Part shown: positions 15,421 to 59,290 of the stretch, one piece after another
Layout of the letters: the number at the start of each line of letters is the position of its first letter
How positions within the stretch are numbered: the first letter of the stretch is position 1
Source: Cyanidioschyzon merolae
Taxonomy: Eukaryota
DNA: 64,000 nucleotides
Assembly (NCBI GenBank): GCA_000091205.1
Contig: AP006499.2
Direction: 5' to 3' (one strand)
Notes under the pieces: model-generated
What the model saw: the letters and a program-made list of their open reading frames with translations, nothing else
Told to the model about the DNA's origin: nothing
Databases searched by the model: none
Translations under genes and position numbers: made by a program

Positions 15421-15648
15421 GATGACGGAATAAAATAGAACTGAACGACCAGAAAAGGCACTTTTCACGCGACTCCGAACTAGCAGGTAAAGCGTGCCGG
15501 TACGCCTGCGCAGCCGATTGGCGCTCGAATTCCTTGCCGCTGCGCAGCACTGCGTCTGAGTAGGTCGTTGTGCTGCAAGGCTGCGGCCTTTCTCGAGGGT
15601 GTGCTGCAGAAACCGCCTTGACGGTGGCTAGGGGCGACAGGACCGTGT

Positions 15649-16596: not shown

Positions 16597-19113
16597 AGAC
16601 GTGACCGCACGGTATACCTGCACTTTCAGAACTGGGCATGTGCATGCGTCTTGACGACCCAGGGCGAGAAACTGCAACAACGACGCCAGATACAGCAGGC
16701 AGCAGCGGCTCGAGCGAGTGCGTCTCGCGATACCATTTGCGAAGCGACCGGCATGCTGGAACGACCACAAAGACGCGCGGGACGCAGCGTGATCGTACCT
16801 GTATCTATCGCTAGTGGTTGCAGCACTACGTAGCGAGATCCGATGCACTCATCGAGAACACGTCATCGTGGAGAGAAATGCGCACAGAGACTATCGCTGC
16901 ATCATTTTCGGGTGCAGCATTGCGACGCACCGAGGAAAACCGATCACGCGAGCATACCGTGAAGCGGGATAGATGTTTCCGCGAAGAAAAGTTTTTTCCA
17001 CAGTCTAAAATAGGGCCTTTTTGCATCATTCCTGGACGTTCAAATGGAAACACCAAGCATTGATTGCCCTTGACGTATTCGCCGGGCCAGATGGTTCCTG
17101 TTCCAGCTGCTCTGAGCATGAAGAATGCGGAACGTGCACGCTGCATTCCACGAGTTGCTGCGCCGCAGTAGCACGCGTTTGCGCGGTCCCGATTACAGTC
17201 CGCAAAGGTTCAGGTTTTTGGTTTCAAGCTGGCGACAGTTCGTATGTGCAGGAGGGATTGGGGATCCATCTAGACTGCCAATAGAAAAGCGCGAGTCGAA
17301 AGCAGCGTTCATGTACGGCGCTCAACTCTGCAGATCCGCTTTGCAAGGAAGCGATCGGACGGTTGCACGCGACGTCGCATGCGTTTCGATACACCCGCCT
17401 AACGCGTTACCGGGCAAGAGACACCACGGAAACCCGGCTAATATACACGATGTGTCGATAAAGACACATGCTTCATGCAGCCTGCTGGTCTGCTGGACTG
17501 CAACGCCGCCACCCGTGAAGTGTATTGAACGCGCGGAAGCGTCGAGGCAGCTGCATTGGAGCGGAGATCGAGACCCTGGGAACCGGCTCTGGAAGCGGAA
17601 ATTCCGGTTTACCCGTGTCAGAATAAAAAATAGAACGAGTCGCGTTCGCCAGCCGAGGCATACGTTCTAAAGTCTGGGACTCTTCGCATGAACGCCAGCG
17701 CCAGCCTCCACGGGATTTTTTTGCGTATGTTTTGTTTGCTTGTCTCGGAACTATAACTCTGTTTTCAGCTGCCAGGCGATGTGCACGGCGACGTAAATGT
17801 TCCTATTTCGTCGCTTTCGGGGGTTGTCGACGCATTTCATGCTCAGGTAAAAGTTGTAATCTCCGCTTTGCCAGCCATTTTCCTTCTCTTTAGATACAGG
17901 ATCGGTGTGCCCTGCGCAGCTGTGGCACTTGACTAACGGCACGTGCTCCGATACATTCAATGCATCTTCTCGCGAGAGCGCCGAACTCTGCCGCGTGAAC
18001 GCTTGCTTCTTCGCTCGGCACATGCCCTTGACAAGGACAGAACTTTCACCCTGATGCTGTTCTCCGCTTCTGCGCCCAGGATCGTACCATGCGATCAGGG
18101 GCTCCTTCAGGGAGCTCGCCCCGGAGAGCACGCCGGCTGCTCCTTATGCGAGCGCATGCAGTTCCATTCGAAAGAGAGTTTCTGAAAGGCGAGGCTCTCC
18201 GTGATGAAGCAAGTATTGTAAGGAAAAATCAGGCTGGAGATCGTCTCTAGAAATTCCGATCCGTCTGTGATCCCTCTTTGCGGAAAGCGTTGACGAAGTC
18301 TCCATCGGAAGCGATCGCCTCTGTGGCTCAAGTCCGAATCCAAGACTCTTTTCCATGAAAGAAGACACGGGAACTTCTGGGACCATACCTTGTGAATTGT
18401 ATCATGGTACAGTGGAGTCCCGTTTCACCAGTTACCATGACGAGAGGAGGATTTATCTCTCGAACGCAGTCTGTGATTCAGCGAGACAAGTTCAGTGAAT
18501 GTTCGGCATGAGATTGTGAACAATGCCCCCAAAGAGTGAAGTCGAGCAGTTTCCTCGTCAATCGAGCGGGCGAATGATTATGGTCACGAGATGTCCTGGA
18601 GCATGAAGATCGATAAGATAAGGCAAGCTTGATTTGTGTATTTTACATATAAGGGAAGGAGAAGGATGGATGCTTTTTCATATGCATTGGATAATACTGT
18701 CGGTTGTTTTACCAGTGCTTGTTCGAGCGCGTTACGAATCATCCCGATTCCGGTGACGCAACGAATGCCAGTGGCAGACAATATTGCAGGTGCCACTTCG
18801 AAACGACGACCGAGGATCCGAAAACTACCTATGGATCCGTAAGCGCATTGTGCTGCGCTTCGAACGCCTACCAAGCGCATCAAAAAAATTCGTACGGAAA
18901 TCGAAAACCAGGAAACGATTGCCCAGTTCACTTTACCACTTGAAGCTGACACCAACGTAGATGCATAGATCCAAAACTCTACGTCAACTCGCCGACGCCC
19001 CTAGAGCGATTGTGATCATCATCAGGTCGAGTGGTGCGCGATGTGCGCTCGCTTTTGCTAGAATGGCACCAGATGCATTCGGGGTGTACGGAACGCGAAC
19101 AAGACTGCTTTAT

Positions 19114-21100: not shown

Positions 21101-21185
21101 GGTAGTATAGCTCAGTCGGTTAGAGCGTGCGGCTGTTAAGACAGTAGAAACCGCAAGGTCGAGAGTTCAAGCCTCTCTACTACCG
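21101..21185 (+). tRNA. tRNA-Asn (anticodon GUU) with an 11-nt intron at the canonical 37/38 position
   Basis: Cloverleaf is readable: acceptor GGTAGTA/TACTACC, D arm GCTC-AGTCGGTTA-GAGC, anticodon stem TGCGG/CCGCA with loop CTGTTA|AGACAGTAGAA|A, variable loop AGGTC, T arm GAGAG-TTCAAGC-CTCTC, discriminator G. U33 and A37 are conserved. Mature length 74 nt. Confidence 0.75.
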
Positions 21186-24435: not shown

Positions 24436-25450
24436 GCGCGCGTCCGATAAAGGTGGAATCCTGAGATGTTCGCTTTGTTCTTGGCTTGCGATTTACGTTA
24501 CGAACGATTCCCAGAGGTACAGCGCCAGCATTCGGATCGCAGCAATAGGGGATGACGGATTCATACGTAGTTTCAGGATGATCGGTCATCGTTTCGAAAT
24601 GGCTCTTTCGAATCTCTTTCAGAGGGAACACGCAACGATACCACACTGAGGATGATCCTCGATGCCCTCGAACAACGGCTCCTAAAATAACCGATCTCAT
24701 CATCCAATGCATACGTACAAGCCTCCACGCCTCTCTTTTCCTCAGGTGCAGCACGATCGAATCACCCATGCCTCAAGGTATCGATCCGTAGGTTATGAGC
24801 GCAATCGTAGGCGCACCAATTTGGACTGCTGCATTACCATGGGGAAACAGTATTCGACATCGCTTCCCTAGGGCTGGCCTGTGACCTCGTTGCGGACGTT
24901 CGCTGAATTTGGCACGTTCAATAGTCGATTCGATTCGATTCGATTCGAATCGAATGACAAATCCGGCTCCATCTGCGGCTATCGACGAAACGGCAATCGA
25001 CTGCAGCACGGGAGGTGCCACGGGGTATGGGCTGCGGGGCTCCCGTGCCTTGCGTTTGCATGGAAATGATCATTGGGTCGGTCTCGGATCGTCCGTTGCG
25101 TTGGCATCCAGCGGATACTGCGTCACTGCGGTGCACGGAAAGCGGGTGCCTGGGTCGATATGTACGGACCTGATCTCCAGCCTGGATTTTCATCCTGGTA
25201 CGTGTTTCTTCCTGATGAACATCGCGTGCCGCAGACCCTCGTCTCGTCGCGAAACAGCGAAGAACAGAGGCTGAATACGATAGAGAAGAAGAAGACAAGC
25301 GAAGCGTAGATCGCAACGACCGCTTGTGCTTGCAATGGATGCACAGCAGCTGGAAGCCGCGTCATTGCGTCGATAACGCTGCTATCAACAATCCTTCGAC
25401 TGCTCAAGATGGAGTTGGTGCAAAAAGGGAGACCAGCAGATTGAAAGCCG
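24436..25450 (+). repeat. Family-X dispersed repeat, direct-repeat copy 1 (~1 kb, no long ORF)
   Basis: About 97% identical to 27750-28765. Starts at 'cgcgtccgataaaggtggaatcctgag'. Contains a (GATTC)n microsatellite at 24925-24955 and the conserved core 'gaagacaagcgaagcgtagatcgcaacgaccg...ccttcgactgctcaagatggag' at 25290-25430. Confidence 0.9.
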
Positions 25451-25860
25451 GAGATTCGAGCGAGGAAAAGGACGGAGTTCCAGATAAAGCACGCAAATGC
25501 TTGTGTTGATCACTGAAAAAGAAAGCGACTCACACCCTATAGTCTCCATCCGTTTTTAGGGAGTTGATCGGTTCGGTTTTCTGTCTGACATGGGTGCAAA
25601 ACCCCAAATATGTGACCTATGCGTTTTGAAAAGCCGACATACTTCACGGCCTCCTGCGGTGTGCAACTGCAGCTGCAGCACCTGCGGCTCGGTATCGCAA
25701 GCGGCATTCTACTCAGAGGCCGCCATGTAACGCGTCGCGGTGCGTCCAGCCGGTGGGCGGTGTCCTGGCTGAGTCGCAGCGCCGGGCGTAGCTGACGTCG
25801 AGTGCGAGCCTGGTGGTAGCCAGCGACTTCCTCCGTACCAGCACGAGGCACTGACAGGTC

Positions 25861-26853
25861 ATGTTCGTGGCACTCGGACCTGCCAAACTAGGCCTTGACC
25901 GGCGGCTTGGAGCCCCTCGAGTTTCAAACCGGTTGAGGACGTTAAGGCTGTCGTTCGCGGAACGCGTGGAGCGCAGCTTGCGGAGAAAGTTTCCTGCCGA
26001 CTCGGTCGCCCGTGTAATCCAAGCTTGGCGACAAATTCAAAGAGGCGAGATGCTTCGCGAGGATCAGAGGGAGGCACATAGCTATATTCGAGGACTTCGC
26101 ACTGCCAGGTTTTTTGATAACGCCGAGTTTCCCTGGGCGGCTGCTCTCGAGAGGAACTGGGAGACCATCCGCGACGAACTGCGGCACTGGGAAACGCGAC
26201 GCCAGGAGCTCGAGGCGCTTGGCTCGCAAGTTTGGGTTACTGCAGCTCGAGCGGAGGCCGTTGCCTATGGCCCGGACTGGCGCACCCTGGTTCTGCAGGA
26301 TAGACGCTGGCATGACGACAACTGCAAGCTCTTCACCAAAACGACAAGAATTATTCGGGATTGCGGTGTGCCGTCAGTCGAGGCTTTTTTTGCCAGGCAA
26401 GCACCCCAGAGCGGCATCAAGCTTCATTCTGACGGATGCAACTTTATTTTGACAGCGCATTTGGCACTTCAGGCACCGCCACGACAGTCATGGATTGCAG
26501 TTGGCGGCGAGCGCCGTTTCTGGGAAGACGGGAAGGTGCTCATTTTCGATACCAGCTATCTCCATGAAACATATAACGAGAGTCAAGACTCTGATCGGTA
26601 CGTTCTTTTGTTGCGTTTCTGGCATCCTGAAACAACTAGAGTAGAGCGCGAGGCCTTGCAGTACATTTTTGACGTGGTCGACAACCCGTCGTGGGTCGAT
26701 CGAGACCTGAATGATCTGGGAGCAGGTCTCGATTCCTCGCTCGTAGAAGATTGGATACAGCGTCCGAATAGGAAGGCGCGGCGTGGCACCGGCGGCAAAG
26801 ACCGCAAGGACCGCACGTTAAATCCGCCCAGGGGTTTCGGTCGCTCGGAATGA
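25861..26853 (+). CDS. Aspartyl/asparaginyl beta-hydroxylase-family (2OG-Fe(II) oxygenase, cupin) protein
   Basis: The FFDNAEFPW...LERNWETIRDEL block and the ...IKLHSDGCNFILTAHLAL... His/Asp metal-site region resemble the Asp/Asn beta-hydroxylase family. The gene lies between the two family-X direct repeats. Confidence 0.6.
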   Translation: MFVALGPAKLGLDRRLGAPRVSNRLRTLRLSFAERVERSLRRKFPADSVARVIQAWRQIQRGEMLREDQREAHSYIRGLRTARFFDNAEFPWAAALERNWETIRDELRHWETRRQELEALGSQVWVTAARAEAVAYGPDWRTLVLQDRRWHDDNCKLFTKTTRIIRDCGVPSVEAFFARQAPQSGIKLHSDGCNFILTAHLALQAPPRQSWIAVGGERRFWEDGKVLIFDTSYLHETYNESQDSDRYVLLLRFWHPETTRVEREALQYIFDVVDNPSWVDRDLNDLGAGLDSSLVEDWIQRPNRKARRGTGGKDRKDRTLNPPRGFGRSE

Positions 26854-27749
26854 TGATGCCTTGGCTTCTCCGAGGCTGTGCCATTCAAGCGCTTGCGCGT
26901 TCGCGATCGACATTGGGTGCTCTTAGAATTTTCCAAGACATATTGTTTCTGAACTTGGCGTGCACAGAGGGTCAGCCTGGTGATTTCCAAACGTAACGTG
27001 GTTTCGCACGGGGAGTACTGCTCGACGAGCACGTCCCGCGAGGACTAGCGAGACACGCGACGACGCCAAAGGTGTATTACCGCTCCCAGTCTGGATTGCT
27101 TTTCGTGGATAGCCCAGAGCTTTACCCGGGAGCAAAGGACAACAAAAGAGCAGCGTACATGCCTGTATTAGCATCACTCGATCATGTGGCACAGGAGCCG
27201 GTTCAACTGCTAGCAACATGCGTTCACTCAAGGAAACATTCGACTGTAAACGAAAGCAGCAAGCTGTTTTGAGTCTCTTCTCGAATGCGGCAACATGGCG
27301 CTTAGCATTCAGTATTCCCTTTTCCAGGATGTCGAGCTATGGTTTCAGCGTCTGTGCATCTTGTGTTGCATATTAGCTGACATCGATGCGAGTCGTAAGA
27401 GCAAGTTGCAGAACAGCTACAAGCTCTGTTCACGAACAGGTCCATGTGTGGCGCTGGGCAAGCTCATTCGCGGGATTTTGATCAGCACTAGAGCGACAGC
27501 GATCTCAGGGTTGTGCAGTACATCACTTTCGCATGATCGACTTGATTGAATGTCAGCTTCGAGCGGCACGTTTTCAGTAATGGCTTCCAAGGGCATCTTC
27601 TGGAGCCCGGCTTCAGTGCATGATGCGCCACCTTTTCACTCTCGTGTGCAGGGCGTGCTGTGGGAAAATACATTGTACGGAAATCGATTGATTTGCGATG
27701 TAATCATGGCTCCGTGATGGTTCCAGCTGGCACCACCAGCTCATTCCGC

Positions 27750-28765
27750 AATACCCGCGTCCGATAAAGGTGGAATCCTGAGATGTTCGCTTTGCTCTTG
27801 GCTTGCGATTTACGTTACGAACGATTCCCAGAGGTACAGCGCCAGCATTCGGATCGCAGCAATAGGGGATGACGGATTCATACGTAGTTTCAGGATGATC
27901 GGTCATCGTTTCGAAATGGCTCTTTCGAATCTCTTTCAGAGGGAACACGCAACGATACCACACTGAGGATGATCCTCGATGACCTCGAATAACGGCTCCT
28001 AAAATAACCGATCTCATCATCCAATGCATACGTACAAGCCTCCACGCCTCTCTTTTCCTCAGGTGCAGCACGATCGAATCACCCATGCCTCAAGGTATCG
28101 ATCCGTAGGTTATGAGCGCAATCGTAGGCGCACCAATTTGGACTGCTGCATTGCCATGGGGAAACAGTATTCGACATCGCTTCCCTAGGGCTGGCCTGCG
28201 ACCTCGTTGCGGACGTTCGCTGAATTTGGCACGTTCAATAGTCGATTCGATTCGATTCGATTCGAATGACAAATCCGGCTCCATCTGCGGCTATCGACGA
28301 AACGGCAATCGACTGCAGCACGGGAGGTGCCACGGGGTATGCGCTGCGGGGCTCCCGTGCCTTGCGTTTGCATGGAAATGATCATTGGGTCGGTCTCGGA
28401 TCGTCCGTTGCGTTGGCATCCAGCGGATACTGCGTCACTGCGGTGCACGGAAAGCGGGTGCCTGGGTCGATATGTACGGACCTGATCTCCAGCCTGGATT
28501 TTCATCCTGGTACGTGTTTCTTCCTAATGAACATCGCGTGCCGCAGACCCTCGTCTCGTCGCGAAACAGCGAAGTACAGAGGCTGAAGACGATAGAGAAG
28601 AAGAAGACAAGCGAAGCGTAGATCGCAACGACCGCTTGTGCTTGCAATGGATGCACAGCAGCTGGAAGCCGCGTCATTTCGTCGATAACGCTGCTATCAA
28701 CAATCCTTCGACTGCTCAAGATGGAGTTGGAGCGAAAAGAGAGACTTGCGTATCAAGAGCCGGCG
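27750..28765 (+). repeat. Family-X dispersed repeat, direct-repeat copy 2
   Basis: Near-identical to 24436-25450 and carries the same ORF artefacts in the track. Differences are a shorter (GATTC)n at 28234-28257 and a more diverged final ~40 bp. Confidence 0.9.
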
Positions 28766-38197: not shown

Positions 38198-38545
38198 TCA
38201 GTTCGAAGATGGTGTACGGCACGGCGTGCCGGTGAACGATATAGCCGAGAATTTCCGGGCCTGGCTTCGCTCCCAGAAGCAGGGTGCGAATGCGAAACGT
38301 GGAAGTGTTTCCAGGAGATACTGCGAGATGCTGGCGCTTATGGAGAGATAGAAACAGGGGCTTTCCGGGTCAAAGGGAGCAATCGTTCCGTTTTTGTGCA
38401 TATGGACATGAAGTACGTGCAGGAATACTATTTTCGGAGAGGCTTTTATGACCTGAATAGCAAGGTTTTAAGGGTGGCTGGTCGCTTTTCTTCTGGAAAC
38501 CGCTGCCATGATTCATGGAGACCAAGGGATACCCGACGCTTGAGT

Positions 38546-39927
38546 CGACACCCATGAAGAACGACAATGTCATGGGTGCGCTCCGCGAGCTCGTACGCAC
38601 ACGCTCAAGTTCTGGTCTCTTGCGAATGCGATCAAGTCTCTGGGGTTTATCTCAGCGACTGCTTCCTGTTCCTGCCGCGTACTTCCGGCTTCACAGGCAC
38701 CGTTCTCTTCTGTCGCTCCAGATTCGGTGTCAGCAGTCGAAGGGTGTTGACGGCAGTGTGCGAGTCCCAACTGTTTCTCGGCCTCGGGCTGGTGTCAACG
38801 AATGCAATGCGCACTCGCGGTCGCTGCGATCTACGCATCACTTGCCATGTTCGTCTTCTTATTGTGCAGCCTCAGTGCACGTCCTTCGCAGCAGTAACGC
38901 TTGACTCTGGGCAGGTGTTTCCGTACCGTCCATCGCACCGTTTTCTCCGAGTCCTGCCTTCTGGGTCACCAGCGCTAGTCGCATCGCTCGCTACAAGCGC
39001 TGGACGGGTCCAGGCGGTTACCTCTGATACCAACCTGCATTGGCGCGCCCGCCGCTGCACCCTACGCTCATGAGCTTCACCTAGAGTGACCAGCTCGGCG
39101 AATTCGCTTGCTTCTGCGTACGAAAGCGAATGCATACGCTGTTGCGTTCGGTCAAGGACTGTGGAGCGCGATGTTGTCCATGATGAAACAAGCACCGCAA
39201 GGAATACCCTGCGGGCGAAACGAGTCTACGAATTCTGATCCGTCCACGCGCCTTTCGTGCAACGCGTCGACACCAGCTCGACTGGAAGCGCTCGCTACGA
39301 TGACTCGAGTCCGAGTCCGGGTCCGAGTCCGAGACCCCTCAACAGGTAAACGGAAGCGTCGGGCACCCCCGGGGTCGTATCCCGTGAGCGATACCGTGCT
39401 GCTGTGGAGTCTCGTTGCGTCGATAGCCACGGAGGAAGGATGATTTGTCTTCCAAGCGGAACTCAATATTGGACATGACATCGTCTGCGGGCCGTCGGCA
39501 GGAGCTTGTGATCAAGCCGTCATGGCGTATCGTAGAGTGTTTTGCATCGTTCCTCTGGCGTTGCGGACTGCTGCGCCCACGAGTTGCCATGAAGCAGCTG
39601 AATCGTGAGCTTGAAGCACGCGTGACTGGAGCGTGCGTCTCGTCATGCGAGGTGAAGAGCCGAGGCATGCTCGTTTGAACCGGATAAAGAAATCTGTTAT
39701 TTTGCATACGCTAATTCGAGGAGGTCGCGACTCATCTTGATTCTGGTGTCGCAGCGAATGCAACCGGTTGAGCGTCGACGGAGCCGCACCGGAACGTTCA
39801 CCGAGAATCCTGAAACTACTGGTGAATCTGGAAACCCCTATTGGGTGAATCTGAGTGTCGAGGTTGCAAATCTGGAAAACGGTTGGAAAAAATCGAAAGG
39901 CAGGAGCAGTCGACTAGTGCAGTATTC
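38546..39927 (-). repeat. Family-X repeat, inverted-repeat arm L (~1.38 kb)
   Basis: Reverse complement of 43613-45002. Identical 168-aa and 77-aa ORF artefacts appear on opposite strands in the track (38567..39073+ = 44475..44981-; 39445..39678+ = 43857..44090-). Contains a (GAGTCC)n hexamer repeat at 39306-39333. Confidence 0.9.
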
Positions 39928-41963
39928 TATTTTCGTTGGGCACTGGTTGAGACAGCAGCTGCAAGTTGCGAAAGAATGCGCGGTGCCAGACATCTTGGAA
40001 TGTAGTGAAATCCTCAACAGTAATTGCGGAAGAAGCGCTCTATTGCTTGGATATACACGTGAGTGACGGCCTTGCCGCTCGGGTTCAGGTCGTAGGTCAA
40101 CGGTTGCATACAGTCTCTACAGTGAAGCATTAGAGCAACTTCGCGAAGAGCATTGACGGTGTATGGTTCAGTTTTTTTTTGCGTACAGAGAGGAAATGGA
40201 ATAAAGTTGACAGATATGATATAGCCCGACGCAATATCAATCTGCACGTACTTCGTAACTACGAATTGCGAGTCGAGCAACAAGGCTCGTTTTCAACTGT
40301 TCAACATAGGTGAAGAGCAATGGTTCATTGTGGGTGTGGAAACGGGCTTGAAGAGTATCATGCCCGTTGTTTTGCCTCTGAGTCACGGATACGGGGCCAA
40401 AGGCTTACACTGAACAAGACGAGGTTGCCCAGCTTTGCAGGGCTCTGTACTTTCGAGAGTCGTACATGACACACGGTACGCGACGTACCAACAGGTAACA
40501 GGATACTGTTAGAATAATCTCGATGCTCTGAGCACTGCACCCGGCAGACGAGATGCTTTGTGCGCTTCATTCGAAGGTTGCATCAGCGTCCGAGAATCCT
40601 GATGCAGGCGAACATTGGCAGGATTGCATGAAACCACGCTGGGGGCGCCAACGGTTTCGGTTGTACGGTGGCGAGGACGGTGCATACGTCAACTTCATCA
40701 ATGCGCTGGAGAAGGCGAAGACCGATACGTCGCATCGTTTGGCGGTTGAATTCTGTGGCACTGGACGTGCTGTAGAGCACACACGCTGCACTCCTGCACC
40801 ATCGAAGAGAGTGGACTGCTGGCGGAGGAAGCGATTCGTCACGTTTCCCATCGATTAGTTCAGGACAATATACATGCATCACAAGCACAGGCGTGCGCTC
40901 AGACTGGTCCAGAAGAAGATAGTGAAACAGAGCCGGATACACAAGGTGATGTGCGGTAAGCTAGCCGAACGTCAGATAGCGAGATAATCGAAGTTGTGAG
41001 GTTTGCTGTGGTTTGTTTCCGACCGCATCCATGTGCGCGGAAGCGCCTTCCGCACCGAGCCTTGAACGCCTCGTTCAACAAGCGGAAATATCCTGTACTT
41101 TCGGATCGTCCAGCGCTGCTCTGTCGAGCGAATATTCGAGTGAACCGTTTAGAACTCAGTGTGAGCATTGTGCTCAAACGCTGACGACTTCCAATGAAAA
41201 ACATAGCAAACGCCAAGAGGGAGGGCATCGCATTCCTGCCTCGAACAAGGCACTGGGATGGTACGGGAACGCGATCCGGCATGGCTTCAGTGCCTTACGT
41301 ATACATAGGGAGAGAGTTTCTCGGGCTTTTGTTCGACGATACTGGTATTCTATTATCCGACGTTACTGGGCAAGTCCAAATTCAAAATGCAACATTTCAT
41401 GGCAACGCTACAGCACGTGCCAGCGTCAGATCAACAGCGAATCGCCTCGGCAACGGAGACCAACCCCTGGGTAGTTGTATCATAAGCGCAAACGCTCCTC
41501 GCTAACGTACAGTGCCGAGAGCAGGTACTAGGATTCACCCATTGTGGTAGATCATCTCCCTTGGACTCCAAATTCGCGATACCGGAACCCATTGCATACG
41601 TACGTGCAGAAAAAGCAGATGATTTCCCTAGCACCAGGACATTTTTTCATGATTCATATATTCCAATATGCGACCTTTCTGCGGCACAGCGGAAAGTAGC
41701 TCAAGTTTCTCGCTCTTGTGAGAACGCAGTAAAGCTGATCGGTATGTAATGCGATTTTTTGCAATCCTGTAAATCGACCAAGAACTTGGGGTTGTCTTCC
41801 ATCGCAACGGTTGGCACCCTGTGCGAGAAACGATGCCGCCGCCTCCGTCGACGTCACTGGAATGCAACCTCGGGTCTTCAAACGTGCGTTTCGGGTCGCC
41901 AAACGCGAAGCCGTGTTCACAAAGACTACCAAGGCACTCGAACATCAGTGCAGCATCCGCGAA

Positions 41964-43310
41964 TCACTGTGCGTCGCGTCTTTCAAAGGCCGCTATGAAA
42001 TACGCAGAACGTGACGAGAAACCTGTAACGGGAGCTGTGGCTATTTCTGCAGTGCTTGCGCCTATCCTTGGACCAGAGACTCCAAGCGGGGTTCGTGTCT
42101 GCGCTGCCTGCGCGGGAATACGAACCGCTGCAGAGCAGCCAGCCAAACCACGATGCGGCCACGCGGGGAAGACAGTGTCCAAGCGCCAACGACTTGCGAT
42201 GAACGGATCGGCGAGCAGCGCCTCGACAACTTTTTCGTTTTCCTCAATCAGTACGCTACACGTGGAGTAGACAACCCGCCGGACTCGAGGAAAAGCCACC
42301 AGCGCATGCCGAAGTAGCTGAATCTGAACGGCAGCCAGTCGACCGATTCTGGACCAGTTATAGCGCTCCCCGACGGGCCGGTAACGCACTAAACCAGACC
42401 CTGAGCACGACGGATCGACTAGGATCGCTGACGCTTGCGCAAGAGCGCCATCATGAGCATCATCGGATACCACTGTTCGAAAGTCCTTCAGATGCATGCG
42501 AATGCTCTGGGTGAATCCTGCGCTGCGAACACGCGATACCATCGCCCGATAACGTTCGGCATCTCTTTCGAATGCATAAACCATGCCACTCTGTTGCAGC
42601 AGATTGGCAAGAAACATGCTTTTATTCCCAGGTGCTGCACATGCATCGATAAGGTGCCAGCCGCGTTGTGGTTGGAGCGCGAGCGCAGCCAGGCACGAAC
42701 CTCTGTCCTGCACGATGAGTAGCCCGCGCTGCACCCACTCATGGCTGAGGAATGCCCCTAGGTCTCCATGGAAACACCAGAAGAGGTCCGGGTATGCAAG
42801 ATCGCGTTCAACGCATCCAGGGAAGGCGCGTTCGACTGCCGCAGGATCCAAACCGCCAAGGACTTGCGGTCGAAACCAGAAAAAGCGATAATCCTCTGTT
42901 TGTTGAAAAGATGGCGGCTCATCGGTGTTCGTCCTGGACCCGCCACAGGACGTTGTTGATGCGCTGAGCAATTTTTTGAGCTTACGAGCGATGAACCCTC
43001 CAGCGCGAAGCAAGTTACCGCGGCCAAAACAGCGTTCGTAGACCACAACTCGAGCTAGCCAGTGGTTCGTGGGACGTCTCAACCAGTCGTGCCACCAGCG
43101 CCGTTCATCTTTTGGTTGCTGCTGGATCGCACTCTGCAGTATCCGCTCGAGTTCGTGGCTCCAGCGGTGTGTCTCGGTTGCCAAGGCGTACACGCGTGGC
43201 CACTCGGTACCCAGACGCGTTCGTTCGCGGTACAGAAACGTGCGCAGCGAAGCGGATGACGTTTCCGTCAGCGTTAAAACCTGCGCAACGCTTCTATAGA
43301 CGGGGTGCAT
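41964..43310 (-). CDS. NOL1/NOP2/Sun-family RNA cytosine-C5 methyltransferase (NSUN5/Rcm1-like size)
   Basis: SAM-binding motif I (LIDACAAPGNKS), catalytic motif IV (ILVDPSCSGSG, cf. DAPCSGTG) and motif VI (VYSTCSV) are present. The gene lies in the spacer between the inverted family-X arms. Confidence 0.8.
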   Translation of the reverse strand: MHPVYRSVAQVLTLTETSSASLRTFLYRERTRLGTEWPRVYALATETHRWSHELERILQSAIQQQPKDERRWWHDWLRRPTNHWLARVVVYERCFGRGNLLRAGGFIARKLKKLLSASTTSCGGSRTNTDEPPSFQQTEDYRFFWFRPQVLGGLDPAAVERAFPGCVERDLAYPDLFWCFHGDLGAFLSHEWVQRGLLIVQDRGSCLAALALQPQRGWHLIDACAAPGNKSMFLANLLQQSGMVYAFERDAERYRAMVSRVRSAGFTQSIRMHLKDFRTVVSDDAHDGALAQASAILVDPSCSGSGLVRYRPVGERYNWSRIGRLAAVQIQLLRHALVAFPRVRRVVYSTCSVLIEENEKVVEALLADPFIASRWRLDTVFPAWPHRGLAGCSAAVRIPAQAAQTRTPLGVSGPRIGASTAEIATAPVTGFSSRSAYFIAAFERRDAQ

Positions 43311-43612
43311 GAACCGTTCATCACTCGGGTAAGTGTAGTGACTGCCCCCAGGCGGTGCTCAACGTGCCCGACTCGACTCGCACACTAGACAAGTTTTGCA
43401 CCCGCGGCGCGCTGCAGACAGCGGGCTTGTGTACTCGGCACACTGCGGATACCCGAGTGGAAAAGGAAGATGCTCGACAGAACACTCCTATCAGAGAGCG
43501 ATTGGGTTGTAGGATTGCTTTGTCGGTGTAGCGGTCGACGAGGAAGATAATGCAAATAGGTACGGATATGCCACTGCGCGATGCTACACTAGTGTCAGAT
43601 CAACATGGAATA

Positions 43613-45002
43613 CTACACTAGTCGACTGCTCCTGCCTTTCGATTTTTTCCAACCGTTTTCCAGATTTGCAACCTCGACGTTCAGATTCAACCAATAGGGG
43701 TTTCCAGATTCACCAGTAGTTTCAGGATTCTCGGTGAACGTTCCGGTGCGGCTCCGTCGACGCTCAACCGGTTGCATTCGCTGCGACACCAGAATCAAGA
43801 TGAGTCGCGACCTCCTCGAATTAGCGTATGCAAAATAACAGATTTCTTTATCCGGTTCAAACGAGCATGCCTCGGCTCTTCACCTCGCATGACGAGACGC
43901 ACGCTCCAGTCACGCGTGCTTCAAGCTCACGATTCAGCTGCTTCATGGCAACTCGTGGGCGCAGCAGTCCGCAACGCCAGAGGAACGATGCAAAACACTC
44001 TACGATACGCCATGACGGCTTGATCACAAGCTCCTGCCGACGGCCCGCAGACGATGTCATGTCCAATATTGAGTTCCGCTTGGAAGACAAATCATCCTTC
44101 CTCCGTGGCTATCGACGCAACGAGACTCCACAGCAGCACGGTTTCGCTCACGGGATACGACCCCGGGGGTGCCCGACGCTTCCGTTTACCTGTTGAGGGG
44201 TCTCGGACTCGGTCTCGGTCTCGGACTCGGTCTCGGACTCGAGTCATCGTAGCGAGCGCTTCCAGTCGAGCTGGTGTCGACGCGTTGCACGAAAGGCGCG
44301 TGGACGGATCAGAATTCGTAGACTCGTTTCGCCCGCAGGGTATTCCTTGCGGTGCTTGTTTCATCATGGACAACATCGCGCTCCACAAGTCCTTGACCGA
44401 ACGCAACAGCGTATGCATTCGCTTTCGTACGCAGAAGCAAGCGAATTCGCCGAGCTGGTCACTCTAGGTGAAGCTCATGAGCGTAGGGTGCAGCGGCGGG
44501 CGCGCCAATGCAGGTTGGTATCAGAGGTCACCGCCTGGACCCGTCCAGCGCTTGTAGCGAGCGATGCGACTAGCGCTGGTGACCCAGAAGGCAGGACTCG
44601 GAGAAAACGGTGCGATGGACGGTACGGAAACACCTGCCCAGAGTCAAGCGTTACTGCTGCGAAGGACGTGCACTGAGGCTGCACAATAAGAAGACGAACA
44701 TGGCAAGTGATGCGTAGATCGCAGCGACCGCGAGTGCGCATTGCATTCGTTGACACCAGCCCGAGGCCGAGAAACAGTTGGGACTCGCACACTGCCGTCA
44801 ACACCCTTCGACTGCTGACACCGAATCTGGAGCGACAGAAGAGAACGGTGCCTGTGAAGCCGGAAGTACGCGGCAGGAACAGGAAGCAGTCGCTGAGATA
44901 AACCCCAGAGACTTGATCGCATTCGCAAGAGACCAGAACTTGAGCGTGTGCGTACGAGCTCGCGGAGCGCACCCATGACATTGTCGTTCTTCATGGGTGT
45001 CG
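43613..45002 (+). repeat. Family-X repeat, inverted-repeat arm R (~1.39 kb)
   Basis: Partner of 38546-39927. Carries the family core 'gaagacgaacatggcaagtgatgcgtagatcgcagcgaccg...cccttcgactgctgacaccgaatctggag' at 44694-44850 and an expanded (GAGACC/GAGTCC)n at 44199-44250. Confidence 0.9.
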
Positions 45003-45159
45003 ACAATCGTTGTTTCGATAATCATGTACAAATTGTATACTTAGCCCGATAATATCCCATTTATGTCCATCACCATCTCGATGACGCACTGTCGTCTCTA
45101 CCGGAATCCAATCCGTGTTGACACGACGTTTGTGAACACCCCCGGTTCCTTCCTGAAGC

Positions 45160-47299: not shown

Positions 47300-48770
47300 A
47301 AGCATAAATTGTAAAACCAGATGATCTGATATATACGGCCAGAAAAGACAAAAAAACATTTCACGACCACGGAGGGTATGTATATGTACCCAGGCGCAGG
47401 CGCCTGCCAGTCTTTTTTGGCCGTCCGCCTGCTATCGGGTTCAGCTTCACCCTGTACACGTCGAGCCGGAGAGGCTGCCTTATAAACTTGGATCGCGTCA
47501 GCTCCGCGGATCTCGTCTTCAGCACCGCTCATCGTCTGATATTAACAGCAGCGTTGTGATCCCGGTTCACGAACTTGTTGCATGCAGTGCTGGTAGTGGG
47601 GAACACCAATGCAGGGATTGCCGGAACTTGCGCCCTCCGTGGTAATACATTCTCGACATCGTCCCGTCGAGCGAGTACCTTTTCTCGTGTATCTCCACTG
47701 TTCTTCTTCATCACTTGCTCTTCTTCGCATGGTGGTCTTAGAGAAGAGTATTTTTTCGTTTTTTTTTCGCTGCAGGCGACGATAATCGCCCTCCAGGATT
47801 CTCGACTTCCATGTCCATAACTTTCCCGTAGATTTTTTATTTCTTCATATGAACGCACTTCTTGATGCTCTTAGACAAGGGCCATCGCGGAGTGAGAAGG
47901 ACCTGCGCAAGAAAGAAGAATTGTGCCCGTGGGCTAAACGTACGGAGAACGCTTCGGCAATTCGCCCAGTGGAGCGATCATGACGTTCCACCCTGGAAAG
48001 TACTCCTTTGATGGTGCTTAACCACCGAGCGTACGTAGGAATGAGAAGCAGCTCTATCCCGGTAGAACTGGCATAAAGATCGAATGCAAATGAATGGTGA
48101 AATGCCACGTTGTCGAACAGAAGAATGTCGGCGGAGCTGCAAGGGAAAAGTCTTCAATGATTCAACAAATTGGGTGCTTTTGTTGCAAGAGCCTTCTCAA
48201 CGAGCGAAACCGTGGCCGGCAAATGAATCCTCTGCAACTAGAAGCTGAAATGATGATATGATCTTTCTCTTGCATGTCTTTTCTAATTACAACGAGCGCC
48301 CTGCTCGGCGAATACCCATATACGCTCCGACCGTTTCGTCTGAAGGACTTTTCAACGATTGAAAAAAACAAACCGATGTCTCTGTGATGCATACCGACCG
48401 CAGCGTTCCAGGAACGCTATCGTTGCGTGAACTAGGACGCTCGTTTTGGCGACTGTATTCCAGGGCTTTCAACGCGACACGAACAAGCTGTTGAGAAACA
48501 GCGACACCCGCGATGGCTACGATCGTCGCTTTTGCTTTTCATACGGCAATCAACGAGTCGCTCTCTACCATGGACTGCAAGAACGCTTCGACAATACCAG
48601 TTTTTGGCGCGGAACGCATCTACTTGTTTCTTTCACTGTTCCTCAACCATCTGAGTACAGTTGGATGACTGAACTGAATGAGGAATACAGTCCTCCTTGT
48701 ACTGTTCAGTACATAATATATATCCTACAGACGATTCGTCTACGATCTAACCAGTACATTGCGTCGTGAT
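47300..48770 (-). mobile_element. Degenerate TnpB/Fanzor-like element, copy B (~1.45 kb; best-preserved C-terminus)
   Basis: Minus ORF 47529..47858 ends ...KKYSSLRPPCEEEQ...FPTTSTACNKFVNRDHNAAVNIRR. ISDra2-type TnpB has ...YPSSKTCSSCGH...CEACGFVLDRDLNAAINI, i.e. a CxxC zinc finger plus RuvC-III. The body at 47830-48770 aligns with copies A and C. A conserved tail lies at 47300-47530. Confidence 0.6.
47529..47858 (-). pseudogene. TnpB/Fanzor-like nuclease C-terminal fragment (zinc finger plus RuvC-III); upstream body is frameshifted
   Basis: CNKFVNRDHNAAVNIRR terminates the ORF. Upstream minus ORFs 47845..48108 and 48162..48392 are in other frames, and the shared peptide block RxTGRI(A/G)EAFS also occurs in copy A. 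Confidence 0.6.
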
Positions 48771-48993
48771 TTCAGTGCCCCGCTTACTGAACGCGGCATC
48801 GAGCGTGGAACGAATCCTAGTTGAAGGACTTTGAGGAAACCTCAATGCTCGTGTGCCCGCGGGCCGCCGAGCGACACGACCGGGATGCGCGCACGCGCCT
48901 GCGCCACCGGGGCATCGTGCAACGTCCCCCGGAGGCCTGACGGGGTGAAAGCGCCTCACTGGCGAATCGGAGCGCTGTAGTGCGGCTTAGGCT

Positions 48994-56342: not shown

Positions 56343-56467
56343 AGTGGCGAGTTCGAGCATTGGCACTGGGAAAAGCAAACACGCTTGGTCAGCGACTGCA
56401 TGAGCGCAACTGAGAACGTGGTTTTTCCAGTTTAACGTCGTCGAAATGGCACACACGCACACGGTCA

Positions 56468-57840
56468 GTAAAACGAAAACGTTTCACAACCATGGAAAGG
56501 AAAAATATCTACCCACGCGCGGACGCCTCCCAGACCTTTTTTGACAGGCCGACTTGTATCGGTTTGAGCTTCTCCTCGTAAACCTCTTGCCTAAGCGACT
56601 GCTCCATAAAATGAGGTTGCGTCAGCTCGGCGAGTCCCGTCTTGAGCACCGCACATCGTCTGATATTGATGGCGGCATTGAAGTCTCGATTCACGAACTC
56701 CATGTATATACTGACACTGGTGGAACTCACCAGCGCAAGGATTGCTCAAAGTCGTGCGCGCTGGGCCCTTTGGTGCTCTGTCAGCTCTCCGTGATTTTCT
56801 AGCTCCAAAGCGCTCCGCTGCATTTTCTCCATCTTGACATTTTCGAGTGTACACCAAAGATCGTACTTTTATTTTTTTTTAAATGAACGCACTTCTTTAT
56901 GGCCTTCGGTAAGGGCTCTCCCGGGGGAGGAAGCTTTTGCGGAAGCAAGACGTCATGTGCCCCGGTGAGTCACCGTATGCTGGACGCCTCAGCGATTCGC
57001 CCAGTAGAGCAATTATAACGTTTCACGATAGAAAACACTCCTTCAGTGAGGTTGAACTACGGCGAGTACGGAGGACCGAAAAGCAGCTCTGCCCGGATAG
57101 CATTGGTAAAGCTCGAACGCAAACGGAATGATGAAATGCGACGTTGTCCAGTTGAAGGATGTCGGCAGACGCCACGGGAAGAGTCATCAATGATTCAACA
57201 AAGTGGGTGCTTTTCTTGTATGAGCCGTCTCTACGAGCGAAACTGAGGTCGTAAAATGAAACCACGGCACCTAGAAGCTGCGATGATATCGTTCTCGTTC
57301 TCTTCGAGTTCGATTGTAGATAGAACGGGCTCCATTCAACTCAAGTACCCGTGTGCGCCTCAACCGTTTCGTGTGAAGCAATTCTAGTCGTCTGAAACAA
57401 ACCAAATTTCCTCTGCTTCATACCGATTGCGACGCTCCAGGGAACTGTTTTTGCGATTTCGGTGGATAATGCCCATGCGTGAACTAGGACTCTGTTTCTG
57501 CGACGGTATCCCAGTGCATTCAGGACCAAACGAACAAGATGTTGAGAAACAGAGACGCCAGTGGTGGCTAGTATCATCGCTTTTGCTTCCCGGAAGATGA
57601 TTCACGGGTCGTTTTGAACCACTGACCGCAAACAGTCTCTGATGGTACCAATTTTTGGTGCGGTGCGCATCTGCTTGTTTCTTTCAGTGTTCCTCAACCA
57701 TCTGAGTACTGTGGTATGATCGAGCAAAAGAAGGAATGCAGTGCTCCTAGCACTGATTCGTAAAGAATACATCCTAGAGACAAGTCGTCTCCGAGCTATA
57801 CAATACATTGCATCGCGATTTCCATTTCCTAATATACACC
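56468..57840 (-). mobile_element. Degenerate TnpB/Fanzor-like element, copy C (~1.37 kb), inserted ~215 bp downstream of Hsp90
   Basis: Minus ORF 56509..56730 contains MEFVNRDFNAAINIRR. The body at 56875-57840 aligns with copies A and B, with minus-strand translation ...VKRYNCSTGRIAEAS. The tail 'aaaacgaaaacgtttcacaaccatggaaaggaaaaatatctacccacgcgcggacgcctcccagacctttttt' is at 56468-56540. Confidence 0.55.
56509..56730 (-). pseudogene. TnpB/Fanzor-like nuclease C-terminal fragment (RuvC-III motif; zinc-finger cysteines lost)
   Basis: EFVNRDFNAAINIRR. Confidence 0.5.
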
Positions 57841-58289
57841 GCATCGAGGCTGGAGCAAATCTGAGCTGAAAGCCCAGAGGGGCTCTGCGCGAACCTGCCG
57901 CTTGCCCATTGGATCCGTTCGTTCCCGCGGCGGTGCTCAGCGCTCCTGCGCCGCATGGTATTCGGCATGCTGGCGCCTGACACACTAAGTGCGACGTGGC
58001 TGTTGGGGAGTCGACGCCACTCTCAGCGCAGGGCCTTGAACAAGCACCAGGTCGTAGAGAGTCTGCCCGCCTTGAAGCAGTGCGCCACAGACTCATTATT
58101 TCAGATCCAAATGGGACACTGGACTGAGCGCTCTGCTCTTGTCTTTCCATTTATTTTCCGAACTTTGTTTGAAGAAGTACAGCATCAACATTCGAGCTGC
58201 AGCGATCAGGGCTTTCGGACTCGTACGTGCGTTTCGGATCCTCAGTCGTGGCCTCGGAGTGGCTCATTCGACGCTTTGGCGCTGGTATT

Positions 58290-59290
58290 CGATACGTGAC
58301 CCGAATTAGGACGATTCGCGACGCCCGCGACCATGGGTTCCTAACATCATCCAAGTCATTATTTAATTCATACGTAGAAGCCTCCACGCGTCCCCGTTCC
58401 TTATGAATATCATGGACATAGCACGCATTCTTCAAGATTTTGTTTCTTCTGTTTCAAGGCAACGCTTGGGCAGAACGCTTCGCGCCGCTGAATGGACGAG
58501 ACGAAAACGCTCAACGTCGTCACTTGAGGGCCTGGTTCAAGAGTTCATCCTTAAAGTCCGCAGAGCTTTGGGCGGTCAAATAATCGATTCCGTTCGAAAC
58601 GCAGATCCCTCTCTCATTGTGATCATCGACGAAACGTGATGGCATACCAGCTAGAAACCTTTCACGGAACAAACTCCCGGAAACGCCCAGCGCTTCCGTT
58701 TCCATGTTAAAGGGTTTCGGACTCGGACCTGAGTCATCGCAGGGATCGCGTCTAGACGAGAATGCATCAGTGCGATGAACGTAAGGAACGTAAACAGACC
58801 GAAATGTTTAGACTCGTTCTCCAGCCTGGTTCCTCCTCACTGTACTTGTTTCAGCATGCGTGACATCGCGTTCCCGCACATGCTCCGAAGAATGGTACAG
58901 CGCGCACATGCGCAGCGCACAGCGTATTCACGGAAGGAATCGTCTAGAGGAAGCTAGTGATCGTAAGGTACTGCTACGCACGCGGAAACAGAGGAGGAGG
59001 CGGAGCGCATCCGGGCGAGCCTGCATGCACCATGGGGCGGCGCTCGTAGGCGACATTGTGGTGGCATATCGGGGCATTTGAAGACACGCTCTTGTGACCG
59101 CTGCGAAGCGCGCACCGCGACTATATGCAGCGAAGATGAATATGGCAAGCGAAGCGTAGATCACAACTGTTGCCTACACACGACATGCATAACCACAACG
59201 ACCGGAAACTGTGAAATCGGGACTTGCACCTCGCCATCAACATCCTTCGGCTGCTGATAACGGAGCTAGAGGAAACAGAGAGAGACCGGT
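58290..59290 (+). repeat. Diverged solo copy of family-X repeat
   Basis: Shares 'catcatccaag..at.....tacgtagaagcctccacgcg' (58333-58390) with the direct-repeat copies (24693-24735). Shares 'cgcttccgtttccatgttaaagggtttcggactcgg..ctgagtcatcg' (58693-58740) with IR arm R (44175-44265). Shares the core 'gaagatgaatatggcaagcgaagcgtagatcaca...catccttcgactgctgataacggag' (59135-59270) with all copies. Confidence 0.6.

Follow-up and report, generated by a model that had tools for sequence, protein, structure and literature searches.

The four related repeats in a 64,000-nucleotide stretch of Cyanidioschyzon merolae DNA (contig AP006499.2; this whole stretch is referred to as the window) are very probably copies of a two-gene DNA transposon that are now dead and carry internal deletions; the transposon encoded a mariner-type transposase and Fanzor1. 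Hsp90, Pfs2, and chorismate mutase encoded in the window are exact matches to proteins of C. merolae 10D. A sequence-only reading of the same DNA had described them as an old, decayed transposon family of TnpB/Fanzor-like elements. Old and decayed the family certainly is; the identity assigned to most of each copy, however, had to be changed.

Four homologous stretches on the minus strand were detected at about the positions claimed for them (pairwise blastn E-values of 1e-19 to 0), although the copies are 61–71% identical to each other (pairwise) rather than 70–80% as had been estimated. Copy boundaries were set by the conserved termini common to at least 8 independent metagenome copies.

14018–15449, minus strand: copy A, a DDE_3 pseudogene and the Fanzor1 tail only
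47336–48829, minus strand: copy B (the flagged copy), with 5' leader, DDE_3 pseudogene, internally deleted Fanzor1 pseudogene and 3' end
56462–57874, minus strand: copy C, a DDE_3 pseudogene and the Fanzor1 tail only
4495–5096, minus strand: copy T, with 5' terminus, CMe-1A-like leader, Fanzor1 codons 1 to ~58 and ~640–724, and 3' end

The coding frames are broken as reported, with stops and frameshifts in all copies and no intact open reading frame. The count of four copies also held, but two further Fanzor-related remnants in the window had been overlooked. T had been regarded as a truncated 1.4-kb unit but is a transposase-free derivative of 602 bp, nested in an older Fanzor pseudogene, and its 5' terminus is the same as in the composite copies (5'-terminal alignment). 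An ortholog of B is present in L012 (Fanzor tail protein 97% identical), and C occupies the same site in strains L001–L004 with 97–99.6% identity. A, B, C, and T survive as fixed fossils between genes, and neither protein can be encoded by any window copy.

The C-terminal module does derive from a TnpB-like Fanzor gene, in agreement with the sequence-only reading. It is homologous to CMe-1, the published Fanzor1 protein of C. merolae (tblastn on the four copies, E-values of 4e-28, 9e-20 (B), 8e-17, and 3e-12), and also matches intact relatives of 660–750 amino acids (aa) which contain the RuvC-I Asp (G.DPG), the RuvC-II Glu (DEFRT), and the RuvC-III Asp (NRD). The peptides cited earlier were all found: ...STACNKFVNRDHNAAVNIRR in B, MDFVNRDFNATINI in A, MEFVNRDFNAAINIRR in C, and KEFVNREFNVDISIRR in T. 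The Fanzor1 remnants of the three longer copies are as follows.

47391–47818, minus strand: B, codons 1 to ~58 joined to ~635–734, with FVNRDHNAAVNIRR (RuvC-III) and then a stop
14088–14387, minus strand: A, tail, codons ~616–723 (tblastn with CMe-1)
56533–56865, minus strand: C, tail, codons ~611–722 (tblastn with CMe-1)

In B, residues 1–23 of CMe-1 align at 47818–47747 and residues 639–728 at 47657–47391 (tblastn). At the DNA level (blastn), B matches positions 869–969 and 2839–3084 of CMe-1A and T matches positions 790–959 and 2840–3101; across copies, the CMe-1A consensus aligns only at 790/869–969 and 2738/2839–3101. The surviving Fanzor1 codons are 1–58 plus about 635–734 in B and T, and about 611–734 in A and C. 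More than 80% of this ~700-aa Fanzor1 nuclease is deleted in the four copies, RuvC-I and RuvC-II included: the RuvC-I Asp (G-x-D-P-G) is absent from A, B, C, and T, its region being deleted, and the RuvC-II Glu motif ((V/I)DEFRTS) is absent from all four as well. The RuvC-III Asp in ...NRDxNAAxNI is part of NRD in A, B, and C, and of NRE in T. A zinc finger had been reported in B (KKYSSLRPPC...STAC), but this is the Fanzor N-terminus read out of frame, the correct frame being MDMEVENPGGRLSSPAAKKKRK. No C4 zinc finger (CxxC...CxxC), which in the motif of Bao and Jurka lies between RuvC-II and RuvC-III, was detected in CMe-1, P0158, or P0197–P0200, which have THHELGC... instead; the whole lineage is without the finger.

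Full-length relatives P0197–P0200 carry G.DPG, DEFRT, and NRD. The RuvC-II motif is kept in CMe-1 and P0197–P0200, and the RuvC-I motif of intact relatives reads GADPG, GNDPG, SCDPG, GCDPG, or AIDPG. Pfam searches with full CMe-1, P0158, and P0197–P0200 returned only PF07282 (E-values of 0.2–0.5), and the PDB yielded no match to Fanzor1 relatives by either sequence or profile search. Family membership was therefore tested by fold, on P0197 and not on the window remnants. Using an AF2 model of moderate quality (pLDDT 66, pTM 0.51), Foldseek listed PpFz, SpuFz, and GtFz as top matches (E-values of 4e-15 to 1e-13, probability 1.0), and Cas12 and TnpB ranked below these Fanzor1 structures (TnpB (8H1J) and Cas12f being the weaker fold matches).

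The body of ~0.9–1.2 kb upstream of the nuclease remnant, previously taken for a frameshifted TnpB of ~400 aa, is a DDE_3 (IS630/Tc1/mariner-type) transposase pseudogene according to both Pfam and tblastn.

47845–48759, minus strand: B, DDE_3 transposase pseudogene, start codon at 48759 (MY.IDRRR), frame split over three frames
14428–15360, minus strand: A, DDE_3 pseudogene (Pfam, tblastn with P0201)
~56880–57808, minus strand: C, DDE_3 pseudogene (Pfam, tblastn with P0201)

Three-frame scans matched PF13358 (DDE_3) with E-values of 4.4e-6 in B, 6e-4 in C, and 0.05 in A; all three scores fall under the curated cutoff because each match sits in one frame of a frameshifted gene. The independent intact transposase P0201 gave tblastn E-values of 1e-26 (C), 2e-20 (B), and 2e-14 (A). 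A stitched A/B/C consensus matched 87 proteins (best E-value 4e-47, 42% identity), almost all of which carry a PF13358 annotation. The matched proteins are intact DDE_3 proteins of ~295 aa and contain ...SLDETSF..., LLDNVAFHHS, and PPYSPWFNPIE; the consensus itself recovers FFSVDE, LLLDNVAFHHS, and NPIEG. DD34E spacing was counted from LLDN to NPIE on the intact relative P0201, and we infer the catalytic D, D, and E residues by analogy. Single copies carry substitutions in the DDE motifs (e.g., STIKG in B), and B retains the motifs LLFDNVAFHHS and STGRIAEAFS. The peptide RxTGRI(A/G)EAFS does recur in A, B, and C as had been noticed, but STGRIAEAFS is the C-terminus of the transposase. It counts against our explanation that the Cyanidiales contigs searched yielded no intact DDE_3 gene belonging to this lineage.

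Additional support came from the DNA surrounding T. A decayed full two-gene element, in which T is nested, spans about 4.2–8.0 kb, and a further Fanzor1 fragment is present elsewhere in the window.

7210–7884, minus strand: older DDE_3 transposase remnant, first gene of the ~4.2–8.0 kb element (tblastn with P0201, E-value 4e-11)
5102–6714, minus strand: older Fanzor1 pseudogene body, P0197/P0198 residues ~77–605 (tblastn on the whole window, E-values down to 5e-16)
4269–4421, minus strand: older Fanzor1 pseudogene tail, residues ~628–682, RGSLWCD...INIRK and then a stop (tblastn E-values of 2e-7 and 4e-7)
40192–41020, plus strand: sixth Fanzor1 fragment, residues ~372–657 (tblastn E-values of 1e-27 with P0197 and 6e-22 with CMe-1)

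The gene order of the older element is DDE_3 (7884–7210) followed by Fanzor (6714–5102 and 4421–4269), the nested T splitting the Fanzor1 tail from its body. The body keeps DLDPGLK (RuvC-I) and RTTYTHHKHRC, and a decayed form of RuvC-II, IRFHTSRTTYTHH, is found at ~5102. The sixth fragment reads PID(stop)FRTIYMHH at ~40.9 kb, where a stop replaces the RuvC-II Glu codon, and is flanked by the arms of a 1.4-kb inverted repeat.

The same arrangement was observed in metagenome contigs. In L092, an intact 291-aa DDE_3 ORF and the intact 702-aa Fanzor1 P0197 lie between 28-nt terminal inverted repeats (TIRs); the element is 3454 bp long and its ends are compatible with TA (single copy). L007 contains an intact 296-aa DDE_3 gene and a 609-aa Fanzor1 (hhalign probability 100%, E-value 2e-91) between 30-nt TIRs in ~2.9 kb, and L093 has the same order of DDE_3 and then Fanzor1. 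The G+C content of L092 and L007 is 44–47% versus 55% here, which counts against our explanation. At least 8 independent composite copies in Cyanidiales metagenome contigs end at the same 5' and 3' boundaries and are embedded in unrelated sequence, indicating that DDE_3 and the Fanzor tail move as a unit.

Fanzor1 in C. merolae has been known since 2013, intact copies included, and its linkage to a transposase is a modest new detail. CMe-1A, a Fanzor1 element of strain 10D with a 734-aa protein and ~150 copies, was reported to lack TIRs, each copy sharing ~80% identity with the consensus; some copies are intact and carry intact Fanzor1 ORFs (Bao and Jurka 2013, Mobile DNA 4:12, PMC3627910). 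The intact paralogue which the sequence-only reading envisaged elsewhere in the genome is not new. CMe-1A and the window copies occur in the same genome, are homologous at both Fanzor1 termini and in the 3' region, and are all old and without TIRs or target-site duplications; furthermore, CMe-1A 790–865 aligns with the first ~75 nt at the 5' end of the composites and of T. On the other hand, the window copies form a diverged sister subfamily (67–75% DNA identity to the consensus, and 43–58% protein identity between composite-type tails and CMe-1). They have lost >80% of the Fanzor ORF and lack the TE-N2_CMe-like 5' ~790 nt of the consensus, and A, B, and C have a DDE_3 pseudogene that is missing in it. 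CMe-1A appears to be a sister derivative in which consensus positions ~790–3169 would correspond to the window unit minus the transposase ORF. For CMe-1A 780–960, this comparison with the composite relies on a multiple alignment and two short, weak matches. The possible transposase 3' leftover inside CMe-1A (IAEAF and KKCVH) is statistically weak (E-value 0.58) and counts against our explanation, and a gap-tolerant alignment of CMe-1A 780–960 as a composite minus the transposase ORF broke up into noise.

We also analyzed the ends of the copies. No conserved TIRs were detected in A, B, C, or T, either within each copy or in the aligned ends of 9–13 copies, and their flanks showed no TA or other target-site duplication. 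The C. merolae copies may have moved by cut-and-paste, as the transposase family and the intact relatives suggest, and the missing ends count against our explanation. A possible 4–5-nt GGTC/GACC and a direct 'TTTTGTTTCAC'-like motif were seen near both ends; we did not rely on them. At the 3' ends, a search for guide-RNA features gave z-scores of −0.4 to −0.9 for single-sequence folds; for 13 clade-2 tails, RNAalifold returned a consensus fold energy of −2 kcal/mol with no consensus structure, and Rfam showed no match. A hairpin in the coding tail (CCGGTC-AAAAAA-GACTGG) was rejected, since alignment inspection showed no compensatory changes.

In the most probable model, the ancestral element contained a DD34E IS630/Tc1/mariner-type (DDE_3) transposase gene followed by a Fanzor1 gene for ~700 aa on the same strand. 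By analogy with the family and with L092 and L007, the transposase would move the element by cut-and-paste between TIRs, and Fanzor1, guided by RNA from the 3' end of the element, might cut DNA in a way that favors retention or spread of the element, as suggested by published TnpB/Fanzor work. Decay in C. merolae has left A, B, and C with their 5' leader and a transposase gene broken by frameshifts, B with Fanzor1 codons 1 to ~58 and ~635–734, and A and C with ~611–734; T has additionally lost the transposase gene and lies in an older full-length two-gene copy. The Fanzor deletion is common to B and T, whose 5' halves are nonetheless different, so this history must include recombination, which counts against our explanation.

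The view of the ~1.4-kb copies as frameshifted OMEGA/IS605-type elements, each with a TnpB body of ~400 aa, draws on the RuvC-III-like FVNRDxNAAxNI at the 3' end and on a weak match to PF07282 (Cas12f1-like_TNB, E-value 0.14, last 17 profile positions). We consider it extremely unlikely: the body resembles DDE_3 transposases and not TnpB, Pfam scans in three frames found no Y1_Tnp or OrfB_IS605 match in A, B, or C, the full-length homologous nucleases have 660–750 aa, and only the first ~58 and the last ~100–125 nuclease codons align to the copies. A Tc1-like element might instead have landed by accident in or beside an unrelated Fanzor element, the junction being spread later by segmental duplication, so that no single two-gene transposon ever existed. 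There is a precedent in the window (T inside the older Fanzor pseudogene), TIRs were not seen in the copies, and Bao and Jurka stressed that Fanzor elements are often chimeric (PMC3627910). Nevertheless, such nesting is highly improbable given that both genes of L092 and L007 are intact and enclosed in one TIR pair, that the gene order is repeated in L093 and at 4.2–8.0 kb of the window, and that composites at 8 or more loci have common outer boundaries and unrelated flanks.

It is also conceivable, but very unlikely, that the kept tail (the last ~100 codons and ~60 nt) serves as a cis-acting end or encodes the scaffold of the guide RNA (fRNA/omega RNA), possibly for intact CMe-1 Fanzor1 acting in trans. 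TnpB and Fanzor genes carry their guide RNA at the 3' end, an example being the SpuFz-omega RNA structure 8GKH. Exactly this part is kept in all four copies and in every metagenome composite, and intact CMe-1A Fanzor1 ORFs are present in the genome (PMC3627910). However, no thermodynamic, covariation, or Rfam signal was obtained, any nonautonomous deletion derivative keeps both ends, and cross-recognition by CMe-1 is doubtful because the tails are just 43–58% identical in protein. A broader scenario, which we regard as unlikely, is that the whole C. merolae Fanzor1 lineage, including CMe-1A, came from a DD34E Tc1/IS630-type two-gene transposon, and that its TIR-less derivatives, always keeping the 3' tail, are 'guide-only' satellites whose tail (guide-RNA scaffold or cis-site) is used in trans by a few intact Fanzor1 proteins.

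Returning to the two-gene transposon, the C. merolae Fanzor1 elements, left unclassified by Bao and Jurka (PMC3627910), probably belong to the Tc1/IS630-type superfamily, as judged from the joined DDE_3 and Fanzor remnants, the decayed two-gene copy in the window, and the TIR-bounded L092 and L007 sequences. For annotators, a C-terminal RDxNAAxNI beside a broken ORF of ~1 kb need not mean a TnpB body; here it is a transposase. The window is of little value for gene hunting, since its copies are fossils and Fanzor1 has already been published here. L092 and L007 are candidates for a compact pair of transposase and Fanzor1, and the natural deletion derivatives show which minimal portion of the element is never lost.

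Elements of the IS200-IS605 family have a Y1 (HUH) TnpA partner and subterminal hairpins and transpose as single strands by 'peel and paste'; none of these features was found in the window copies, which have a DDE transposase partner instead. ISDra2 TnpB is a distant homologue in the nuclease superfamily, with the RuvC-III motif ...RDxNAAxNI in common, but has ~400 aa compared with ~700 aa in the Fanzor1 lineage here. SpuFz (8GKH/9CEU), GtFz (9CER), and PpFz (9CF0) have a fold like that predicted for P0197 and D...E...D RuvC motifs in the same order, at only 13–14% sequence identity. Unlike them, the Cyanidiales lineage is devoid of a canonical C4 zinc finger, and the window copies keep only the RuvC-III end.

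Elements joining mariner and Fanzor1 are known elsewhere: PUl-1 and PUl-2 of Pythium ultimum and PGv-1 of Phaeocystis globosa virus are Mariner/Tc1-type elements carrying Fanzor1 (PMC3627910). Apart from the catalytic motifs, the transposase of PUl-1 does not resemble the window copies significantly (tblastn on the window, E-value 8 or higher), and the C. merolae copies differ from all three elements in being pseudogenes without recognizable TIRs or TA duplications. PUl-1, PUl-2, and PGv-1 have a transposase followed by Fanzor1 on the same strand in ~3–3.6 kb, with 24–33-nt TIRs and TA duplications, and this form is shared by L092 (3454 bp, 28-nt TIR) and L007 (~2.9 kb, 30-nt TIR).

Repeat finding and MAFFT alignment bore out four related stretches in the window, all on the minus strand, whose boundaries were defined by comparison with independent copies from outside it:

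14018-15449, minus strand, copy A
47336-48829, minus strand, copy B
56462-57874, minus strand, copy C
4495-5096, minus strand, copy T

All peptides quoted in the sequence-only reading were located in these copies, and stops and frameshifts interrupt every one of them. Pairwise blastn gave identities of 61–71% (E 1e-19 to 0) rather than the 70–80% first proposed. The repeat family is genuine yet old, and every window copy is a pseudogene. The lead as a whole was correct, but it misread the anatomy of the element, whose parts and their order could be established.

The ~0.9-kb upstream part of A, B, and C (the body) had been taken for a frameshifted TnpB. Its three-frame translations match Pfam DDE_3 (PF13358; E 4e-6 in B, 6e-4 in C, 0.05 in A), and the sole TnpB-related Pfam match from A, B, and C was to the last 17 profile positions of PF07282 (E 0.14). 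A frameshift-corrected consensus of the body matched 87 proteins, nearly all of which are DDE_3 transposases of ~295 aa (best match E 4e-47, 42% identity). An intact relative, P0201, begins with MY.IDRR...HTTV.RWL, contains ...SLDETSF..., LLDNVAFHHS, and PPYSPWFNPIE, where 34 residues separate the second D from the E (Tc1-like DD34E spacing), and ends in ...DDAF....H...FF.KSFSLRRGP. As an independent tblastn query it detected C (E 1e-26), B (2e-20), and A (2e-14). Based on the Pfam, consensus, and P0201 matches, the body is thus an IS630/Tc1/mariner-type transposase pseudogene and not TnpB. In each copy, the GCAATGTAC on the 5' side represents the start codon of the transposase, and the recurring STGRIAEAFS, although indeed present, belongs to the transposase C-terminal region.

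The tail at the 3' side is of TnpB/Fanzor kin, as suggested, but the copies retain only remnants of full-length Fanzor1 genes. A profile of the four tails found 152 short metagenome ORFs, the longer of which reach upstream into ...FVTIPVDEFRTSYTHHELGC...; in contig L005, ORFs preceding the tail contain VVGADPGNTN. Using CMe-1, the 734-aa protein of the published C. merolae Fanzor1 element CMe-1A, tblastn detected C (E 4e-28), B (9e-20), A (8e-17), and T (3e-12): A and C keep residues ~611–734, and B and T have residues 1 to ~58 joined to ~635–734. RuvC-I and RuvC-II are missing from all four, and the RuvC-III NRD alone is left (NRE in T). The supposed zinc finger of copy B is the Fanzor N-terminus seen out of frame; CxxC pairs are absent throughout this Fanzor1 lineage. 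The CMe-1A DNA consensus, taken from the supplement of PMC3627910, aligns with the window copies at few positions only (67–75% identity):

Copy T, consensus 790-959 and 2840-3101
Copy B, consensus 869-969 and 2839-3084
Copy A, consensus 2738-2970
Copy C, consensus 2739-3088

Because Pfam and PDB sequence searches did not recognise the full-length relatives, intact P0197 was modelled on a 12-sequence alignment (pLDDT 66, pTM 0.51). The best Foldseek matches in PDB were the Fanzor1 structures PpFz, SpuFz, and GtFz (E 4e-15 to 1e-13, probability 1.0), followed by Cas12 variants, Fanzor2, Cas12f, and TnpB. The predicted fold and the D...E...D motifs support membership of these relatives in Fanzor/TnpB.

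Several lines point to the DDE_3 transposase and Fanzor1 as parts of a single two-gene transposon. Two metagenome contigs of 44–47% G+C carry such pairs:

L092 3-3456, two-gene element, apparently intact, 28-nt TIRs
L007 4946-7873, two-gene element, apparently intact, 30-nt TIRs

In L092, 190 nt separate an uninterrupted 291-aa DDE_3 ORF (53% identical to P0201) from the intact 702-aa Fanzor1 P0197, which lies downstream of it on the same strand; this 3454-bp element is flanked by imperfect inverted repeats with the ends TATAC.../...GTATA. In L007, a 493-kb eukaryote-like contig, a 609-aa Fanzor1 (hhalign probability 100%, E 2e-91) overlaps at its start with a 296-aa DDE_3 gene, and inverted repeats of the same type lie on either side of the pair. 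Both are candidate active pairs of a DD34E DDE_3 transposase and a Fanzor1 of 609–702 aa. The genes of contig L093 are ordered likewise, the transposase gene there being broken. The window, too, has a DDE_3 remnant (7884-7210) that precedes, on the same strand, a decayed, P0197/P0198-like Fanzor1 (6714-5102 and 4421-4269) in which DLDPGLK is still present. Copy T sits between residues ~605 and ~628 of this older Fanzor1 and is therefore a nested insertion.

A scan of metagenome contigs yielded 386 tail relatives. Among the 80 that were retrieved, composites resembling A, B, and C recur at 8 or more loci; they are surrounded by unrelated sequence but share their outer boundaries (5' GTCTTTCARCTCAATTTTGTTYCA..., ~70–120 nt before the ATG, varying by copy; 3' ...TTTYACTGAYCR). 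They have the decayed DDE_3 gene and the Fanzor tail alone in common. B-type (codons 1–58 plus tail) and A/C-type (tail only) forms are both recurrent among them and seem to have arisen independently, by internal deletion, from an ancestor that had both transposase and Fanzor. The common Fanzor deletion and differing 5' halves of B and T imply recombination among copies. Judging from the families involved, the ancestor would have moved by DDE cut-and-paste, and its Fanzor1 would have been a passenger acting as an RNA-guided nuclease. Neither TIRs nor TA duplications were found at copies A, B, C, and T, and folding of 3' ends and Rfam gave no guide RNA for the window copies. In another organism, P0282 (167 aa; L011 188-691) continues from the C-terminal half of DDE_3 into the Fanzor tail (...NAFNSVTSNHLNAAINIQRCAILP...), an independent deletion fusing the two genes.

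The Hsp90, Pfs2 (WDR33-like), and chorismate mutase ORFs of the window are exact C. merolae 10D proteins. Hot-spring metagenome strains have the locus too (97–99.6% identity) and carry copy C there; this copy is fixed across strains. In L004 (97.4% identical), collinearity stops at position 3883 (window 57819), a point ~55 nt inside the 57874 boundary of copy C and ~10 nt upstream of its transposase ATG, and a GST and a TRAPPC gene replace the window sequence. Either a rearrangement had its breakpoint at the element, or the assembly broke at a repeat. A 182-aa ORF (57602-58150, minus strand), predicted as gene P0286 by metagenome gene callers, starts in unique upstream DNA, crosses the copy C 5' leader, and reaches into the first part of the transposase pseudogene; this ORF probably represents an artefact of the decayed element.

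Other features of the window are as follows:

38544-39947 and 43588-45004, inverted repeat of two 1.4-kb arms, 98–100% complementary, with a weak DDE-like FIMDNIALH at 44294-44386 (tblastn E 9.7 only)
40192-41020, plus strand, Fanzor1 fragment in the 3.6 kb between the arms
41964-43310, minus strand, 448-aa ORF, also between the arms
24439-28744, tandem duplication, ~3.31-kb period, 99% identity
25264-25432, 28576-28744, 44672-44844, 59114-59283, and inverted 38704-38876, ~170-bp dispersed repeat, 64–75% identity between loci, unrelated to the Fanzor/DDE_3 element
~58130-58400, 24471-24742, 27788-28059, and 18649-18844, ~270-bp repeat family (~68% identity), detected by comparing strain contigs with the window
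21101-21185, plus strand, tRNA gene; nothing else in the window matched Rfam at gathering threshold

CMe-1A was described as ~150 copies, each ~80% identical to a 3169-bp consensus encoding the 734-aa Fanzor1, some of them intact; it lacks TIRs, its TSDs were undetermined, and it was left unclassified (Bao & Jurka 2013, PMC3627910). Over their initial ~75 nt, the composites align with CMe-1A ~790–865 and the 5' end of T. Past this point, CMe-1A and T continue into ...TTTATAGCAGAAGCGTTCAAAGTGCGTTC..., which leads on to the Fanzor ATG. Both halves of TTTATAGCAGAAGCGTTCAAAGTGCGTTC match the end of the composite transposase gene (IAEAF... and KKCVH, 86 nt apart there), a statistically weak match. 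Since the short matches are weak and gap-tolerant alignment of CMe-1A with the composites was uninformative, we only infer that the CMe-1A core may be the composite unit minus the transposase ORF; the preceding 5' part of the published consensus would be unrelated and TE-N2_CMe-like. The last ~20 nt of CMe-1A-type copies (L041, L034, L061, L063, etc.) form a short hairpin at the element boundary (alignment columns ~357–385), with the variants CGTTCGAC-TTT-CGAACGGCG, CGTCTTTC-TTTT-GAAAGACG, and CGTTTTTC-ATTT-GAAAAACG. The stems vary between copies and stay complementary, in registers that differ between variants; the 3' terminus looks like a conserved terminal hairpin.

The Fanzor1 family of the C. 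merolae genome and mariner-type elements with Fanzor1 have already been published. Three points are new within the searchable literature: the C. merolae Fanzor lineage is linked with a DD34E DDE_3 transposase, a fossil two-gene copy holds the nested derivative T, and there are intact TIR-bounded relatives in L092 and L007. The two-gene element has the same transposase and Fanzor1 architecture as PUl-1 and PGv-1 ("Mariner + Fanzor1", PMC3627910). The PUl-1 transposase itself has no detectable similarity to the window copies.
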